This document shows, in pieces, positions 316-16,370 of a stretch of DNA of 64,000 nucleotides. The notes under the pieces are model-generated. The model searched no databases and was not told the DNA's origin. It saw only the letters and a program-made list of their open reading frames with translations. The position numbers were made by a program, and so were the translations under genes. The number at the start of each line of letters is the position of its first letter. Position 1 is the stretch's first letter. The DNA is from Syntrophomonadaceae bacterium (GTDB lineage Bacteria > Bacillota > Dethiobacteria > DTU022), in NCBI GenBank assembly GCA_007130825.1, contig SLRT01000033.1, positions 489 to 64,488 on the forward strand, in the 5' to 3' direction.

Positions 316-573
316 TTAACAGATCTCGCCCAAACCTGGTGTAAGGTGCGGTAGTTTTTCCCAGCCTGGGATTGTGCTATATTCTCTGAATAGAGGCCTG
401 ATCAGCCAGGCAGGGCCGCCTCCCCCTTTTACTGTAAAAACTTTGCCGGGGCATTCAAAAACCTTTACTCCTTCTCCTTCCAGGGCTGCTTTGGTGCGCG
501 GGCTTCCGCCAATCATCACGCACTGACGTGGAGACAGGATCAAAACCTTATCCGGTTTGCCCGTCCCGGACAA
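316..573 (-). pseudogene. C-terminal remnant (85 aa) of an arginine deiminase/amidinotransferase-superfamily enzyme. The catalytic Cys position is occupied by Trp.
   Basis: KGGGGPAWLIRPLFRE resembles the ADI C-terminal signature KGGGGPRCMTxPLxRE but has lost the Cys. The ORF is far too short for a full enzyme and has no upstream continuation. Confidence 0.3.
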
Positions 574-702
574 TTGTAGTATTATAAACTAGTGTAAAAT
601 GCATGCTGCGCGTTCTTGCCGGGTTAATTTTTACTCTTGGAACAATGCTTTTATCCGGGGGCAGCCCGCATAAGAAAGCACGAGCAAATCATAAACGAAA
701 AG

Positions 703-1623
703 ATGATAATGATGATTACTTTGCCTGAACTAAAAAATGATTTTAATAATGTCGGCTATATCTGTGATGAAAGCACCGCCCTGACTGTATTCCTTTCTTT
801 GGAACTGCAAAAGCCGCTCCTGATTGAAGGAGCTCCAGGGGTCGGGAAAACAGAAATGGGCAAGGTTTTAGCCGATATCCTTGATACTGAACTGATCCGT
901 CTGCAGTGTTATGAAGGTCTTGATGAGACAAAAGCTTTATATGAATGGAATTATCAGCGCCAACTGCTGCGTATTCAGATGAACCGTAACCTGGAAGAGG
1001 AGCAGGTAAAGGAAGACGATCTGTTTTCCGGTCAATACCTGATGGAAAGGCCCTTACTTAAAGCGATCCAGACTGAGGAGCGACCGGTTCTGCTGATTGA
1101 CGAGGTAGATAAATGTGATCCCGAATTCGAGGCATTTCTTTTCGAAGTCCTTTCAGATTTCCAGGTCTCCATACCGGAGCTGGGGACTATCAAGGCCAGT
1201 AAAATTCCGGTGGTTGTGCTGACCAGTAACAATGAACGTGAGCTTTCTGACGGTTTAAAGCGACGCTGCCTCTACCTTTATCTCGATTTTCCAGCAGTAG
1301 AAAATGAAGTGCAGATCATTAAAGCAAAAGTGCCTGCAGCTGCCGATCGCCTTGCCTGGGAGACTGCTCGTGTTGTGGCCCAGCTGCGCCAGCACAGTAA
1401 TATACGCAAAAAACCTTCGATTGCTGAAACCCTCGATTGGGCCAGGGCTTTGGTTTCATTAAACCGCAGCAGGCTTGACGGTAAACTGGTCAGCGATACC
1501 CTGAACCTGGTTCTAAAAACCCGTGCCGATCAGGATTATTTTAAGCAGGAAATCGGTCCGGAAGAAATTGACCGCATTCTTAAGCACGGGGGGAACGGTG
1601 GGGGGCTTTCCCAGTGTCGTTAA
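703..1623 (+). CDS. MoxR-like AAA+ ATPase (CoxD-type).
   Basis: Walker A LLIEGAPGVGKT, Walker B LLIDEVD, and sensor/lid motifs typical of the MoxR family. The ORF track starts at TTG 637, which has no RBS. ATG 703 (MIMMITLPEL...) is preferred. Its 3' end overlaps the VWA gene by 10 nt. Confidence 0.85.
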   Translation: MIMMITLPELKNDFNNVGYICDESTALTVFLSLELQKPLLIEGAPGVGKTEMGKVLADILDTELIRLQCYEGLDETKALYEWNYQRQLLRIQMNRNLEEEQVKEDDLFSGQYLMERPLLKAIQTEERPVLLIDEVDKCDPEFEAFLFEVLSDFQVSIPELGTIKASKIPVVVLTSNNERELSDGLKRRCLYLYLDFPAVENEVQIIKAKVPAAADRLAWETARVVAQLRQHSNIRKKPSIAETLDWARALVSLNRSRLDGKLVSDTLNLVLKTRADQDYFKQEIGPEEIDRILKHGGNGGGLSQCR

Positions 1624-2960
1624 AAGAAAAATTGCCGGAAGGCCACCTGGAAGAGAACCTGATAACGTTTACCAACCTGCTGCGTGAAAAAGGGCTTTCG
1701 ATCAGCACGCCAGAGACTATTGATGCATTACAGGCCCTTCAAAAAATAGATCTGTTATCTCGCGATGCTTTTAAGTCCGCCCTTCAGGCAACCTTGGTCA
1801 AAAGCCGCCGCGACCAGGAATTTTTCGATCGGCTTTTTGATTATTACTTTGCTCCCCCGGAGGTACAGCGCAGAGGCGCTGAAAAAGCAGCTTCCCATAA
1901 AAAGCAATTTGAGAGCAAGATGGAACAGGCCTGCAGTGAAATGAAATTTAAAGGAGAAGCTTTAAAACTCAATGATGAGGAGCTGGCCCAGTACAGTTCG
2001 ATGTCTCAGGAAGAACAGAAACGGTTGCAGGACTTTATGCATAAAACTGAGACAGGGGTTAACGTTAAACCGCGGTTCCGGCCTGTTTTGGAATCTGTAG
2101 TCAAAAGTCACTTACGCTATTGTCGTTCAAAAAGCATGTATGAAAAGCAGAATAATACAAACAGGAAAGATGATCAAACTGCCTCCGGGCCCTCTGCAGG
2201 AAATGGTGCAGGTTCCGGGAGCGCCGATGCCGCTCTCGGCGAGATGGATATTCAGGCTATCAGGACAACCGACCTTCCTGAAGCCGAACAGCTTTTGCAG
2301 CGGTTGTCCCGTAAACTGGCGATCCAGATTTTACGTAGGCAGCGCAGGGGCCCGCGCAGTGGCCCCCTTGATCTGCGTCGCTCTCTGCGTGACAATATGC
2401 GTTATGGCGGAAATATTTTTAGCCTGAAACATAAACCGAAGCGGCGGTCCCGGCAGCAAATTCTTCTGCTCTGTGATGTTTCCGCTTCCATGAAGCAGTA
2501 CAGCACATTTGTAATCCATTTCCTACACGGACTGCGGGAAGCTGTTCGCGATTTTTCCTGTTTCAGTTTTTCCGATAACCTGGAAAACATGACTCCGGAT
2601 CTAAAAAGTCGGGCCGGTTTGCAGCATCTGCTGGATCGGGTGATCCGCCGCAGTGAAACCTGGGGCGGAGGTACCAACCTTGGTTTATCACTCCATGAAT
2701 TGATGCAAAAACATCCGGATCTGTTGAACGGAAAAACTTCTATTATCGTTGTCAGCGATACTAAGACGATTTCGATCGATTATGCGGTCAATGAACTGAA
2801 TAAACTTAAGGACCGGGTCAGGCGAATAATCTGGTTGAATCCCCTGCCAAAAGAACAGTGGCCTGATTACCGCTCTGTCGGGTCTGTAGCCGGGCTGGTG
2901 GAAATGTGGCCATGCAATACAATCGTCCAGCTGGAAGAGGTTCTCACCGGGCGTCTTTAG
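1614..2960 (+). CDS. VWA domain protein, CoxE-like partner of the MoxR ATPase.
   Basis: C-terminal von Willebrand A domain with MIDAS motif DVSAS (LLLCDVSASM...IIVVSDT). GTG start preceded by a GGTGGGGGG RBS. Translationally coupled to the upstream AAA gene. Confidence 0.8.
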   Translation: MSLKEKLPEGHLEENLITFTNLLREKGLSISTPETIDALQALQKIDLLSRDAFKSALQATLVKSRRDQEFFDRLFDYYFAPPEVQRRGAEKAASHKKQFESKMEQACSEMKFKGEALKLNDEELAQYSSMSQEEQKRLQDFMHKTETGVNVKPRFRPVLESVVKSHLRYCRSKSMYEKQNNTNRKDDQTASGPSAGNGAGSGSADAALGEMDIQAIRTTDLPEAEQLLQRLSRKLAIQILRRQRRGPRSGPLDLRRSLRDNMRYGGNIFSLKHKPKRRSRQQILLLCDVSASMKQYSTFVIHFLHGLREAVRDFSCFSFSDNLENMTPDLKSRAGLQHLLDRVIRRSETWGGGTNLGLSLHELMQKHPDLLNGKTSIIVVSDTKTISIDYAVNELNKLKDRVRRIIWLNPLPKEQWPDYRSVGSVAGLVEMWPCNTIVQLEEVLTGRL

Positions 2961-3021
2961 CTGAAACACTGTTGTTACTTGAAAGAGCAACCTGAAATGA
3001 ATTAAACCAGCCAAACAGAAC

Positions 3022-3047
3022 TTGAAATGAAATCACTGACATTTCAA
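3022..3047. promoter_or_regulatory. Perfect 8-bp inverted repeat TTGAAATG-N10-CATTTCAA upstream of the cooC-like gene, with a TTGTGAA half-site just downstream. Candidate operator.
   Basis: Read directly from the sequence in the 124-nt spacer between the VWA gene and the cooC-like gene. Confidence 0.2.
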
Positions 3048-3084
3048 TTGTGAATTATTAGAGAAAAGAGAGGAGAAATAAGAG

Positions 3085-3840
3085 ATGACAATGCGTATAG
3101 CTGTTGCCGGTAAGGGGGGCACCGGAAAGACTACTCTGGCCGCTTTGCTGGTCCGCTATCTTATCGAAGAGAGAAAAGGAAAAGATATTTTAACTGTGGA
3201 TGCCGATGCTAACGCCAATCTCAACGAAGCCCTCGGCCTCAGTGTTGAAGAAACGATCGGCACCATTCTTGAGGACACAAAAAATCCCGATGCGGTTCCC
3301 ACCGGCATGACAAAAGATGTTTTTATTGAGTACCGCCTCAGCCGGGCAATGGTCGAAGAAGATGCTTTTGACCTGGTAGTGATGGGCAATCCACAGGGTC
3401 CCGGCTGTTACTGCTATCCAAATGATCTGCTCAAAAGGTATTTGGAAAAGCTGAGTAAAAACTATGATTTTATGGTTATCGACAACGAAGCCGGGCTGGA
3501 GCATTTAAGCCGCCGGCTTTTGCCCATGGTTGACCTGCTTCTGGTAACCAGTGACGCTACCGCCCGTGGAATTCGTTCAGCGGGCAGAGTAAAAGATATT
3601 GTCGAAAAAGTCAACCTTGAGGTAACAAAAATAGGCCTGGTGATCAGCCGCAGCCGTGAAGGTGAGGCAAAAGCACTGGACCAGGAAATTAAAAACAGCG
3701 GGCTTGACCTGCTGGGAGAAATAACCAATGATCCCCTGGTCGCGGAATATGATCTGAATGCTCAGCCGCTTTTAAGCCTGCCCGATGATTCAAAAGCGGT
3801 GCAGGACTCAAAGAAGCTGTTTCAAGCGCTATCTCTCTAA
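3085..3840 (+). CDS. cooC: CooC/AcsF-family P-loop ATPase (MinD/ParA fold; CO-dehydrogenase nickel-insertion accessory type).
   Basis: N-terminal MRIAVAGKGGTGKTT deviant Walker A, CooC-like size (251 aa), strong RBS GAGAGGAG 8 nt upstream. Confidence 0.75.
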   Translation: MTMRIAVAGKGGTGKTTLAALLVRYLIEERKGKDILTVDADANANLNEALGLSVEETIGTILEDTKNPDAVPTGMTKDVFIEYRLSRAMVEEDAFDLVVMGNPQGPGCYCYPNDLLKRYLEKLSKNYDFMVIDNEAGLEHLSRRLLPMVDLLLVTSDATARGIRSAGRVKDIVEKVNLEVTKIGLVISRSREGEAKALDQEIKNSGLDLLGEITNDPLVAEYDLNAQPLLSLPDDSKAVQDSKKLFQALSL

Positions 3841-3920
3841 CGTCTAATAACAGCGCTTACGCGAATGTGAATTTTACACAAACAGCTGGTTGGTACTGCT
3901 TATTCCAGGAGGTGAGAAGC

Positions 3921-4559
3921 ATGCTTTTTCAGGACCGCCGTCATGCCGGGGAACTGCTGGCCGAAAAATTGGATAATTACCGTAATCAGCAGCCCCTGAT
4001 ACTGGCCGTCCCCCGGGGGGGAGTAATTATTGCCGAGCCGGTATGGCTTAGACTGGGCGGTGAGCTTGATTTGATCATTACAAGAAAGATTGGCGCTCCT
4101 AACCAGCCAGAACTGGCCATTGGCGCAGTTACCGGCGACGGGTTTACCTTGCTTAACGATAAAATTATTTCCCGGCTCAATGTTCAGGAACAATATATCA
4201 AGAAAACCGCTGAAAAAGAGCAGTCCGAGATCATCCGCCGTTTAGAAGATTACCGGGGAAAACAGCCTTTGCCGCCAGTTGATGAACGCTTAATAATCCT
4301 GGTTGATGACGGGGTTGCTACCGGTTATACTTTGCTGTCGGCCCTGCGAAGTTTACAGGAAAAAAAACCGACCAGGCTTATCCTGGCCGTTCCGATCGGA
4401 CCACCGGATACCTTAAGTATGTTGGACCGTGAAGTTGACGAACTGGTTTATGTTCAGGCCCCCGCCGATTTTGCCGCTGTAGGTCAGTTTTACCAAAATT
4501 TCGACCAGGTCAGTGACCGTGAAGTAAAAGTTGTTTTACAAAAAGCCGGTAAAATTTGA
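3921..4559 (+). CDS. Phosphoribosyltransferase-domain protein (type I PRTase fold).
   Basis: PRPP-binding-like motif LILVDDGVATGYT. RBS GGAGG before ATG 3921. The track ORF starts at 3867 without an RBS. Confidence 0.7.
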   Translation: MLFQDRRHAGELLAEKLDNYRNQQPLILAVPRGGVIIAEPVWLRLGGELDLIITRKIGAPNQPELAIGAVTGDGFTLLNDKIISRLNVQEQYIKKTAEKEQSEIIRRLEDYRGKQPLPPVDERLIILVDDGVATGYTLLSALRSLQEKKPTRLILAVPIGPPDTLSMLDREVDELVYVQAPADFAAVGQFYQNFDQVSDREVKVVLQKAGKI

Positions 4560-4650: not shown

Positions 4651-4673
4651 GAAGGGACGACGGCCTTCTTTTT
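4651..4673 (+). terminator. Rho-independent terminator candidate after the PRTase gene.
   Basis: GAAGG-N8-CCTTC stem followed by TTTTT. Confidence 0.35.
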
Positions 4674-4728
4674 AATTTAATGGTGAACAGCTCACCAGGA
4701 AGTTAATTGTCGAAAGGAGATGAACTTT

Positions 4729-5365: not shown

Positions 5366-5513
5366 TACTCTTATCCAGAGTGGAGGAGGGACAGCCCCGA
5401 TGAATCCCGGCAACCGGTTCGTTTGATCACGGTGCTAATTGCTGCGGGGTGGCTAACCTCCCCCCGGGAGATGAGGGGTGCCAGGAAGGCCTCTTGATGT
5501 AGAGGCTTTTTTC
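5366..5513 (+). promoter_or_regulatory. SAM-I riboswitch (S-box) with intrinsic terminator, in the metK leader.
   Basis: CTCTTATCCAGAGTGGAGGAGGGACAGCCCCGATGAATCCCGGCAACC...GGTGCTAATTGCTGC matches the S-box consensus. A terminator hairpin GGCCTCTTGATGTAGAGGC plus TTTTTT lies at 5488-5512. Confidence 0.85.
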
Positions 5514-15247: not shown

Positions 15248-16370
15248 ATGTTGAAAGAATTACGTGAAGAACTGGCTGTTCAAAAGAAAAGGTTCGAGGA
15301 AATGAGGGTTTCTCTTTGAATATGATTCAAAGCTCAAAATCCTGCAAGAGGTAGAAGCCAGGGCTAACGAACCGGGATTTTGGGAAGACAGCACCCGGGC
15401 CCGGAATTACTTAAAAAAACAAGGTAAATTAAGGGAACAGCTCCGTCCGCTGCAGGAACTGGAGAATATGATCGAAGAAACCGAGGTTTATCTGGAGTTG
15501 GCCGGCGAGGATGCTCTTGATGAGCATGAAGCAGTCAATGAAGCAAATCCGATCCTGGAAGAGATCAAACAGCGGCTTGACAAGATGGAACTGGAAACCC
15601 TGCTCGGGGGCGACTACGATTTTTGTGATTCGATAATTTCGCTTCATCCCGGAGCAGGGGGGTTGGAATCACAGGACTGGGCCGAGATGCTGTTGCGTAT
15701 GTACAACCGGTGGTGTGAGCAAAATGGCTACCAGGTCGAACTTGTAGATCTACTGGCCGATGATGAGGCCGGGATCAAAAGCGCCACGATAATTATTCGC
15801 GGGCATGCCGCATATGGTTATCTCCAGGCTGAAAAAGGTGTGCACCGGTTAATACGCATTTCTCCTTATGATACCTCCAAGCGGCGCCACACCTCCTTTG
15901 CCTCTGTAGATGTTATACCCGAGGTTGAAGAAGAAGAGTTTATTGTCAACTCCGATGATATAAAGGTTGACACATTCCGGGCCAGTGGAGCCGGAGGCCA
16001 GCATGTTAATAAAACAGATTCGGCGGTGCGGATTACCCATATCCCGACCGGGATCGTGGTCACTTGTCAGAATGATCGTTCCCAGCACAGTAATCGAACG
16101 CAGGCCCTGCGGGTGTTGCAGGCAAAGCTGGCTGAATTAACACGCCGGGAACAGGCTGAAGAGATTAGCGCCGAGCGTGGCCAACAAAGAGAAATTGCCT
16201 GGGGCAGTCAAATTCGCACCTATATTTTTCATCCTTTTACCCTGGTCAAAGACCACCGGACCGGAATGGAAGTCGGCCAGGTGGAAGCAGTGATGAATGG
16301 GATGCTCGATCCCTTTATTGATGCTTTTCTGCGCTGGAAAGTTCGCGGAAAAAATCCTCTTAAAAAATAG
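15248..16370 (+). CDS. prfB: Peptide chain release factor 2, with a programmed +1 frameshift at CTT TGA (15314-15319).
   Basis: Frame 1 encodes MLKELREELAVQKKRFEEMRVSL, then an in-frame TGA preceded by the SD-like AGGG. The +1 frame continues FEYDSKLKILQEVEARANEPGFWED... into the 15468 ORF, which carries the SPF and GGQ motifs. Confidence 0.9.

Follow-up and report, generated by a model that had tools for sequence, protein, structure and literature searches.

A CoxD/CoxE-like AAA+/VWA pair linked to an AcsF orthologue in Dethiobacteria: a candidate displaced module for nickel-centre maturation of carbon monoxide dehydrogenase/acetyl-CoA synthase

We have analyzed a gene cluster near one end of a 64,000-nucleotide stretch of DNA (contig SLRT01000033.1, hereafter the window) from a bacterium of soda-lake sediment. 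The window belongs to the metagenome-assembled genome (MAG) of 'Syntrophomonadaceae bacterium' T1Sed10_56 (PWFD01000011.1), which is 77% complete and falls in the class Dethiobacteria; the locus is identical in three other assemblies. Four co-oriented genes over positions 712-4559 encode a MoxR-type AAA+ ATPase, a CoxE-like VWA protein, a P-loop ATPase of the CooC/AcsF type and a TT1426-like protein of the phosphoribosyltransferase (PRTase) fold. They are bounded by a gene for a metallo-beta-lactamase (MBL)-fold hydrolase and by fabZ. None of the spacers separating the four genes contained a terminator-like site in our scan, and a hairpin with a T-run follows the last gene at 4651-4678, so that the four look like one transcription unit. 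The genes are:

712-1623, plus strand: MoxR-class, CoxD-like AAA+ ATPase, 303 aa (Pfam AAA_5, 47 bits)
1614-2960, plus strand: CoxE-like VWA protein, 448 aa (Pfam VWA_CoxE, PF05762, 160.9 bits against a cut-off of 26.4)
3085-3840, plus strand: predicted AcsF-type nickel-insertion ATPase (CooC family, MinD/SIMIBI class), 251 aa (best PDB match CooC1)
3921-4559, plus strand: TT1426-like type I PRTase-fold protein, 212 aa (PDB 1wd5, E 2e-45; Pfam Pribosyltran, 59 bits)

An original prediction, made from the letters of the window alone, had named these four families, all of which are borne out by the matches above, and had proposed a relocated or orphan module for metallocentre maturation with no target enzyme beside it. 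Domain scans agree on the last point, since no carbon monoxide dehydrogenase (CODH), acetyl-CoA synthase (ACS) or molybdenum (Mo) hydroxylase is encoded anywhere in the window's 64 kb or over the preceding 10 kb of the source contig.

The AAA+ ATPase scores more than twice the Pfam AAA_5 cut-off of 22 bits. Seven diverse homologues all agree with it in Walker A (GAPGVGKT), Walker B (LLIDEVD) and further motifs; in the alignment GxxGVGKT, LLIDE(V/I)DK, LTSN and LxRRC do not vary, and these include the sensor and arginine motifs of the MoxR class. The mechanical open reading frame (ORF) spans 637-1623, beginning at TTG 637, with ATG 703 as an alternative start; because of the gene calls in the identical contigs and the N-termini of homologues, the true start is probably ATG 712. 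A profile search of the PDB with this protein matched only midasin, RuvB and Clp, and NorQ, CbbQ and RavA were not matched by sequence at E values up to 0.01. Relatives outside the present group came from a metagenome scan with the AAA alignment, which returned mostly CoxD loci of the Mo-CODH type, about 50% identical, that served as the outgroup. Their neighbours are VWA_CoxE, XdhC, MoCoBD, FAD_binding_5/CO_deh_flav_C and Fer2_2 genes, and at one of them (L167; loci are cited by our own numbers) the AAA, 52% identical to that of the window, adjoins a genuine form-I CoxL (TIGR02416, 1257 bits; cut-off 991). The family is thus CoxD-like.

The best-scoring NCBIfam models for the pair were MadB (NF047784; 260.3 bits over the full length of the AAA) and MadC (NF047783; 112.1 bits for the VWA domain), each far below its cut-off (475 and 600, respectively). 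The genuine CoxD of L167 scores similarly on MadB (272 bits, also below 475), so that the match marks a broad subfamily only, and an identification as MadB/MadC was set aside. The literature searched gave only unrelated Mad proteins, and the meaning of 'Mad' in these names was not found there.

The original prediction had proposed that the MoxR protein be placed phylogenetically. In a tree of 106 sequences with 100 bootstrap replicates, it falls in a clade of 33 members separate from CoxD proper. This clade contains all 25 sequences that are linked to AcsF or acs genes, together with 8 that have no such genes nearby, and it excludes all 40 CoxD-type AAAs found in an Mo/XdhC context (100/100 bootstraps). 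XdhC, MoCoBD, FAD_binding_5 and Fer2_2 genes accompany none of the clade members examined, and the association with coxLMS/XdhC genes that goes with CoxD proper is absent for the window AAA. These data bear on the possibility that the two proteins are a classical CoxD/CoxE pair maturing an Mo hydroxylase of the aerobic CODH/xanthine-dehydrogenase family encoded elsewhere, with the CooC-like gene there incidentally. Such a role would suit the membership of the partner in the VWA_CoxE family and the roughly 50% identity of the AAA to proteins encoded beside CoxL/M/S-type and XdhC genes. It is very improbable nonetheless, considering the complete separation of the clade from every Mo/XdhC-context sequence, the lack of all four gene types beside its examined members and the hosts themselves, which are strict anaerobes (Dethiobacteria).

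The second gene is translationally coupled to the first, as had been supposed: its GTG start at 1614 overlaps the AAA stop codon (TAA, 1621-1623) by 10 nt and is preceded at 8-10 nt by the Shine-Dalgarno sequence GGTGGGGGG. In relatives, too, the pair either overlaps or is separated by no more than a few nucleotides. Its product consists of a helical N-terminal half, a low-complexity linker and a C-terminal VWA domain. The original reading of a DVSAS metal-ion-dependent adhesion site (MIDAS) holds; the site is complete (D288-V-S290-A-S292, T354 and D382), with each residue at least 95% conserved over 122 homologues. A PDB sequence search with the VWA protein gave no match. In an AlphaFold model (mean predicted local distance difference test score, pLDDT, 79.7), the predicted fold of the VWA domain finds its best matches in the MIDAS domain of midasin and in NorD of the NorQD complex (9qhe_G, E 2e-5).

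The best solved relative of the third protein is CooC1 (3kje, E 4e-16, versus 2.6e-10 for MinD), and its GCYCY aligns with the nickel motif QCYC of CooC1. To place it among its relatives, one genome per GTDB species was scanned with an alignment of the protein, which returned 80 loci. In 51 of these the match is less than 58% identical, and 47 of the 51 lie in a canonical acs cluster at the position of AcsF (acsC/RACo-X-acsD-acsE), as in Neomoorella carbonis, where the order is cooC-acsA-acsB-acsC-RACo-X-acsD-acsE; Desulfitobacterium, Desulfosporosinus and Sporomusa are among the other hosts. The AcsF-position genes of these 47 clusters are 48-57% identical to the window protein. The cooC paralogue that heads acs clusters is far more distant, at 26-33% identity to the proteins linked to the AAA-VWA pair (31% for that of the window). 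In a neighbour-joining tree the clade of the window protein is nested in the AcsF-position group, far from the cooC-position paralogues.

The motifs tell the same story. The deviant Walker A AGKGGTGKTT (residues 8-17) is invariant, and C108-Y-C110 (the CXC motif) at least 90% conserved, in the pair-linked proteins, the acs-embedded AcsF and the cooC-position paralogues. The pair-linked and the acs-embedded AcsF have in common 68 positions of at least 90% conservation, among which are Walker A, D39/D41 and C108-Y-C110, and only three mild differences (V71, N102 and I172) are specific to the pair-linked clade. The original prediction had named grouping with MinD/ParA as the outcome that would count against it. 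NCBIfam did give only sub-threshold MinD/ParA matches for this protein; genuine AcsF and CooC from acs clusters give the same weak matches, so this is no argument against membership of the CooC family, and the protein groups with CooC/AcsF. Judged by its sequence, the third gene is an orthologue of AcsF, with which it shares its length (251 aa), the core GKGGTGKT of the Walker A, the CXC motif and the conserved positions just described. It differs in its setting: AcsF is encoded in the acs cluster between acsC/RACo and acsD, whereas the window gene stands outside any acs cluster as the third gene of an operon with the AAA+/VWA pair. There is no acs gene within 10 kb of the locus in other Dethiobacteria either, and the usual placement is found only in relatives outside the clade. 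The deposited annotation of the 251-aa gene, 'AAA family ATPase' or 'CO dehydrogenase maturation factor', is corrected by this identification.

A comparison of gene neighbourhoods, which had also been proposed, shows that the arrangement is widely kept. At 29 species loci the AcsF-like protein is at least 58% identical to that of the window, and the AAA and/or VWA gene lies immediately upstream in 23 of them. Four of the other six have less than 600 bp of upstream sequence (one, L047, is acs-embedded), leaving L019 and L037 as the only true negatives. The order AAA-VWA-AcsF is thus kept in 23 of the 25 informative Dethiobacteria species, a recurrence that makes the arrangement far more than chance. 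L009/L010 lack the PRTase, and their trio is set by itself among sporulation and restriction-modification genes, surroundings quite unlike those in the window; in L007 there is a 4-nt overlap of the VWA and AcsF genes.

Strong purifying selection acts on all three genes. The AAA and AcsF-like genes have a nonsynonymous divergence (dN) of 0.10-0.24 and the VWA gene one of 0.26-0.40, with synonymous sites saturated; the values for the AcsF-like gene (0.10-0.21) are comparable to those for MetK. MoxR-VWA pairs are the cores of some conflict (anti-phage) systems (PMC7159879), such as those that Kaur et al. reported in 2020. That the present pair is one of these is barely credible: its low dN is not diversifying change, PADLOC gave only generic, short P-loop matches, no effector, protease or other conflict-system domain occurs at the locus, and the neighbourhood is a stable one of housekeeping or acs-cluster genes.

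Outside the Dethiobacteria, pairs of the same AAA clade are found together with acs genes. In L051 (Acididesulfobacillus acetoxydans) the order is AcsF-AAA-VWA, and in L049 it is Crp-AcsF-HdrE/D-like-AAA-VWA, that is, AcsF-x-x-AAA-VWA. Further acs-linked pairs were obtained by searching for homologues of the L074 VWA protein and not by the metagenome AAA scan. In four other Clostridia loci (L074, L171, L172 and L173), the pair is inside or beside an acs/Wood-Ljungdahl cluster, and in the first three of these it lies beside the nickel chaperone CooT. The order is RACo-AcsF-acsD-acsE-CooT-AAA-VWA in L074 and L171; AAA-VWA-CooT-DUF3786-CooC-acsA-acsB-acsC-RACo in L172 (Oxobacter pfennigii); and acsA-acsB-acsC-RACo-AcsF-acsD-acsE-AAA-VWA, with FlpD, metF and hdr-like genes after it, in L173. 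The proposal of a relocated module that serves a target encoded elsewhere is supported by both findings, the orthology of the third gene to acs-cluster AcsF and the presence of the same AAA-VWA clade in or beside the acs clusters of other Clostridia. Relatives in an operon of known function had been named as a result that would overturn the idea of an orphan module; such relatives exist, yet what they do is name the client.

The recurrence of this linkage also bears on whether there are here two independent units side by side, the AAA-VWA pair being a general-purpose MoxR chaperone with unrelated substrates and AcsF a separate accessory gene for ACS. The 124-nt spacer between the VWA and AcsF-like genes of the window, with a strong ribosome-binding site of its own, would fit two units, as would the orphan pairs of the same clade (L174, L175 and L091-L096) and the retention of AcsF without the pair in L019 and L037. 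We consider this distinctly unlikely, given that AcsF or acs genes accompany 25 of the 33 clade members, that the linkage recurs in at least five lineages and four different gene orders and survives relocation to a different neighbourhood, and that the genes are separated by no terminator in the window (by our scan) and by a 4-nt overlap in place of a spacer in L007.

Some of these clade members have noteworthy neighbours. Genes for a corrinoid protein, MttB and MtbB come right after the acs-CooT-AAA-VWA cluster in L074 (7994-11620) and L171 (12831-21314). The MttB and MtbB genes are each split by an in-frame stop, the signature of pyrrolysine, and in L171 a tRNA-synthetase-like gene and pylD then follow; this points to a pyrrolysine-using methylamine pathway in an Anaerovoracaceae-like bacterium. 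Regulatory genes flank other pairs, with a Crp/FNR-family gene upstream in L049 (9270-18700) and L175 (7926-11344) and a response regulator and histidine kinase downstream in L049 and L095 (14-5684). It is conceivable that the flanking Crp is a CO- or redox-sensing regulator like CooA.

The study from which the window's MAG derives reported 44 Dethiobacter-related MAGs as acsB-positive, using a KEGG-based screen (PMC6146748, supplement 9). Three MAGs that carry the trio are in this table, B1Sed10_67 (L011), T3Sed10_148R1 (L012) and CSSed11_298R1 (L033), each listed as positive for CooS, acsB, acsC, acsD and acsE (PMC6146748, supplement 9).

We propose that the locus is a module for maturation of the CODH/ACS nickel centres, displaced from the acs cluster in Dethiobacteria and now lying among housekeeping genes, and we put the probability of this at roughly 0.6. 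This reading rests on the AcsF orthology, the conserved operon, the recurrent acs linkage, the AAA clade and the acsB-positive MAGs that bear the trio; it draws further on the intact state of the machinery under purifying selection and on the precedents of NorQ/NorD, CoxD/CoxE/CoxF and AcsF itself. The client is most likely the nickel enzyme CODH/ACS rather than a molybdoenzyme.

Several observations weigh against this proposal. Neither AcsF nor acs genes occur within some 10 kb of eight of the 33 AAA-clade members; six of these are orphan pairs with flanks long enough to be informative (L091, L094-L096, L174 and L175), and the other two (L092 and L093) are on contigs of less than 2 kb. Conversely, the AcsF-like gene has no AAA-VWA pair in its upstream sequence in L019 (JAXHVH010000003.1; 10 kb) and L037 (3 kb). 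The linkage would fit a pair serving the A-cluster (through AcsF) or the C-cluster (through CooC/CooT) alike. In 2016 Gregg et al. reportedly found AcsF alone to be enough for nickel insertion in vitro. Lastly, T1Sed10_56, to which the window belongs, does not appear in the table of acsB-positive MAGs, nor do T3Sed10_85R1 (61% complete), which is of the same species, and the borderline relative B1Sed10_63 (51% complete). In the window species acsB may be absent or may merely not have been binned, and the incompleteness of the MAGs can explain the missing entries, but not comfortably. B1Sed10_74m (74% complete) and CSSed10_277R1 (73%) are also missing from the table. L019 retains the PRTase/metK context, and it and L037 may be useful as natural 'deletions' for questions of dependence.

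The same machine could have another client in this species, either a stand-alone Ni-CODH or some other, possibly unrecognised, Ni or Ni-Fe-S enzyme encoded elsewhere. If acsB were present and were binned like marker genes, the chance that T1Sed10_56, T3Sed10_85R1 and B1Sed10_63 would all miss it is about 0.04, as estimated from their completeness; even so, all three genes of the module are intact and under strong constraint, and the module adjoins acs genes in no Dethiobacteria locus. Against this, the MAGs are only 51-77% complete and the acsB screen was KEGG-based, the AcsF-like protein has almost no clade-specific substitutions relative to acs-embedded AcsF, three trio-bearing relatives have the full CODH/ACS gene set, and no alternative client is conserved nearby. 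On balance a different client is possible, if rather unlikely. We also regard as unlikely a more specific form of this idea, in which the trio would insert nickel as a three-component unit complete in itself, the anaerobic equivalent of CoxD/CoxE/CoxF, and would have been retargeted in the window species to a non-ACS and perhaps unrecognised nickel enzyme.

For the displaced CODH/ACS module, two known AAA+/VWA systems provide models. NorQ and NorD, a MoxR AAA+ ATPase and its VWA partner, insert FeB into cNOR (PMC9976466 and PMC13036017). In Oligotropha carboxidovorans, CoxD, CoxE and CoxF serve the maturation of the [CuSMoO2] centre of aerobic CO dehydrogenase; CoxD is an AAA+ chaperone whose substrate is the apo-enzyme in its folded state, and CoxF, the metal supplier, has the VWA protein as its partner (PMC4240915). 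AcsF is credited with inserting nickel in an ATP-dependent manner into the A-cluster of ACS (Gregg et al. 2016, J Biol Chem, as cited in PMC10134865, ref. 87).

The locus resembles the CoxD-CoxE-CoxF system in its CoxD-like AAA, its PF05762 VWA protein with a MIDAS, the tight coupling of the two genes and the three-part logic of AAA+ chaperone, VWA adaptor and metal supplier. It differs in that its AAA belongs to a separate clade (100/100 bootstraps), Mo-hydroxylase and XdhC genes are lacking and the hosts are anaerobic Firmicutes; and whereas CoxF is XdhC-like and supplies copper, the third gene here encodes a nickel-type AcsF instead. With NorQ/NorD, which act on a folded metalloenzyme, the locus shares a MoxR-class AAA+ ATPase with a VWA/MIDAS partner whose predicted domain structure matches NorD; the MoxR subfamily, client and metal are different, and the locus adds a dedicated metal-delivery ATPase.

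From these precedents we infer a client, an order of events and a set of protein contacts as follows. A dimeric, MinD-type AcsF orthologue would hold nickel at its CXC site and deliver it to the A-cluster of apo-ACS, standing in the place of the metal supplier CoxF. The coupled CoxD-like AAA+ hexamer and CoxE-like VWA adaptor would form the remodelling part, in which the MIDAS site of the VWA protein would grip the folded apo-enzyme or the AcsF-ACS complex, and ATP hydrolysis by the AAA+ ring would open or reset the metal site and so allow nickel to enter.

The nickel centres of CODH/ACS have AcsF, CooC and CooT as their accepted accessory proteins, and we know of no AAA+/VWA remodeller in the accepted picture of its maturation. 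In the literature that we searched, MoxR or CoxE was never mentioned together with the Wood-Ljungdahl pathway. The parts of the module are thus known families, and it is their combination, and a CoxD/CoxE-like role in CODH/ACS maturation, that we did not find in that literature. If a CoxD/CoxE-like pair does help to load nickel, the aerobic (Mo/Cu) and anaerobic (Ni/Fe-S) CO dehydrogenases, which are unrelated enzymes, would share a maturation logic, and an entire clade of 'orphan' MoxR-VWA pairs would gain a client. Concrete extra genes would also be at hand to co-express for active heterologous CODH/ACS, in the production of which incomplete nickel loading is a practical obstacle.

Three further features were annotated around the core genes:

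557-585, plus strand: sigma-70-like promoter candidate (TTGCCC-17-TATTAT) upstream of the AAA gene, from a consensus scan (9 of 12 positions matching)
3022-3047, no strand assigned: perfect 8-nt inverted repeat, TTGAAATG N10 CATTTCAA, in the VWA-AcsF spacer
4651-4678, plus strand: intrinsic-terminator-like hairpin and T-run, GAAGGGACGACGGCCTTC then TTTTTAATTT, after the PRTase gene and before fabZ

The promoter candidate is a weak one, predicted in a scan in which the number of sites was not above that expected from shuffled sequence. The inverted repeat had been picked out in the original prediction. It is indeed perfect, and belongs to a set of three TGAAATG copies in the spacer (another is at 2993-2999); comparative support for it was not forthcoming. 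The spacer is 124 nt in the window and ranges from an overlap of the two genes to about 240 nt among relatives, and in close relatives it is not alignable. Neither a terminator (by our scan) nor an Rfam match was found in the stretch from the VWA gene to the AcsF-like gene. With the spacer unalignable, terminator and Rfam family lacking and the genes overlapping in other lineages, the repeat was rejected as a conserved regulatory part; it could be no more than an operator peculiar to this species. The spacer also contains a direct repeat of 13 nt, AAC(C/T)TGAAATGAA, whose copies at 2989-3001 and 3019-3031 are spaced by 30 nt; it overlaps the inverted repeat at its left arm.

The true start of the PRTase gene is ATG 3921, with the strong ribosome-binding site AGGAGGTG ahead of it, and not GTG 3867. 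It is the last gene of the transcription unit in the sub-lineage of the window. The gene follows AcsF in many Dethiobacteria loci and is absent from L009/L010, L027, L030-L032 and all acs-embedded versions. Because it follows AcsF only in one sub-lineage and never in the acs-embedded versions, the PRTase is probably a lineage-specific passenger and not a core part of the module.

The AAA gene is directly preceded by the 3' end of the MBL-fold hydrolase gene, where the original prediction had seen only a degraded amidinotransferase fragment. The ORF in question exists (316-573, minus strand, 85 aa), and is annotated as a 66-aa gene in one identical contig, but the resemblance of its product to the C-terminus (last ~55 residues) of arginine deiminase is non-significant (E 0.34). 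It has GGGGPAWL where the enzyme has the catalytic GGGPRCM, with Trp in place of the catalytic Cys, and is probably a gene remnant.

The remainder of the window consists of ordinary Firmicute housekeeping genes: metK, recD2, comF, hpf, secA, prfB, ftsEX, uvrBAC, rapZ, whiA, rpoN, pgk-tpi-pgm-eno and rnr. The RF2 (prfB) ORF at 15468-16370 (plus strand) encodes only 300 aa and its PCRF match begins at profile position 61, which would fit the usual programmed +1 frameshift; a search for the frameshift motif near prfB turned up nothing convincing and did not locate the site. The 10 kb upstream of the window on the source contig contain genes for V-ATPase subunits, GAPDH and homocysteine biosynthesis. 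The last of these form a methanogen-type trio (HcyBio/COG1900, NIL-ferredoxin and AbpE_bact) that is kept a few kilobases upstream of the module, with metK a few kilobases downstream. The trio lies at 3852-6231 in L001/L002 (on the source contig, upstream of the start of the window), 2597-4985 in L005 and 5818-8225 in L007; this synteny with the module may be coincidental. In the window the long leader of metK contains an S-adenosylmethionine (SAM)-I (S-box) riboswitch at 5368-5477 (plus strand), with a score of 79.2 bits against a gathering threshold of 44.4 (E 6e-18).

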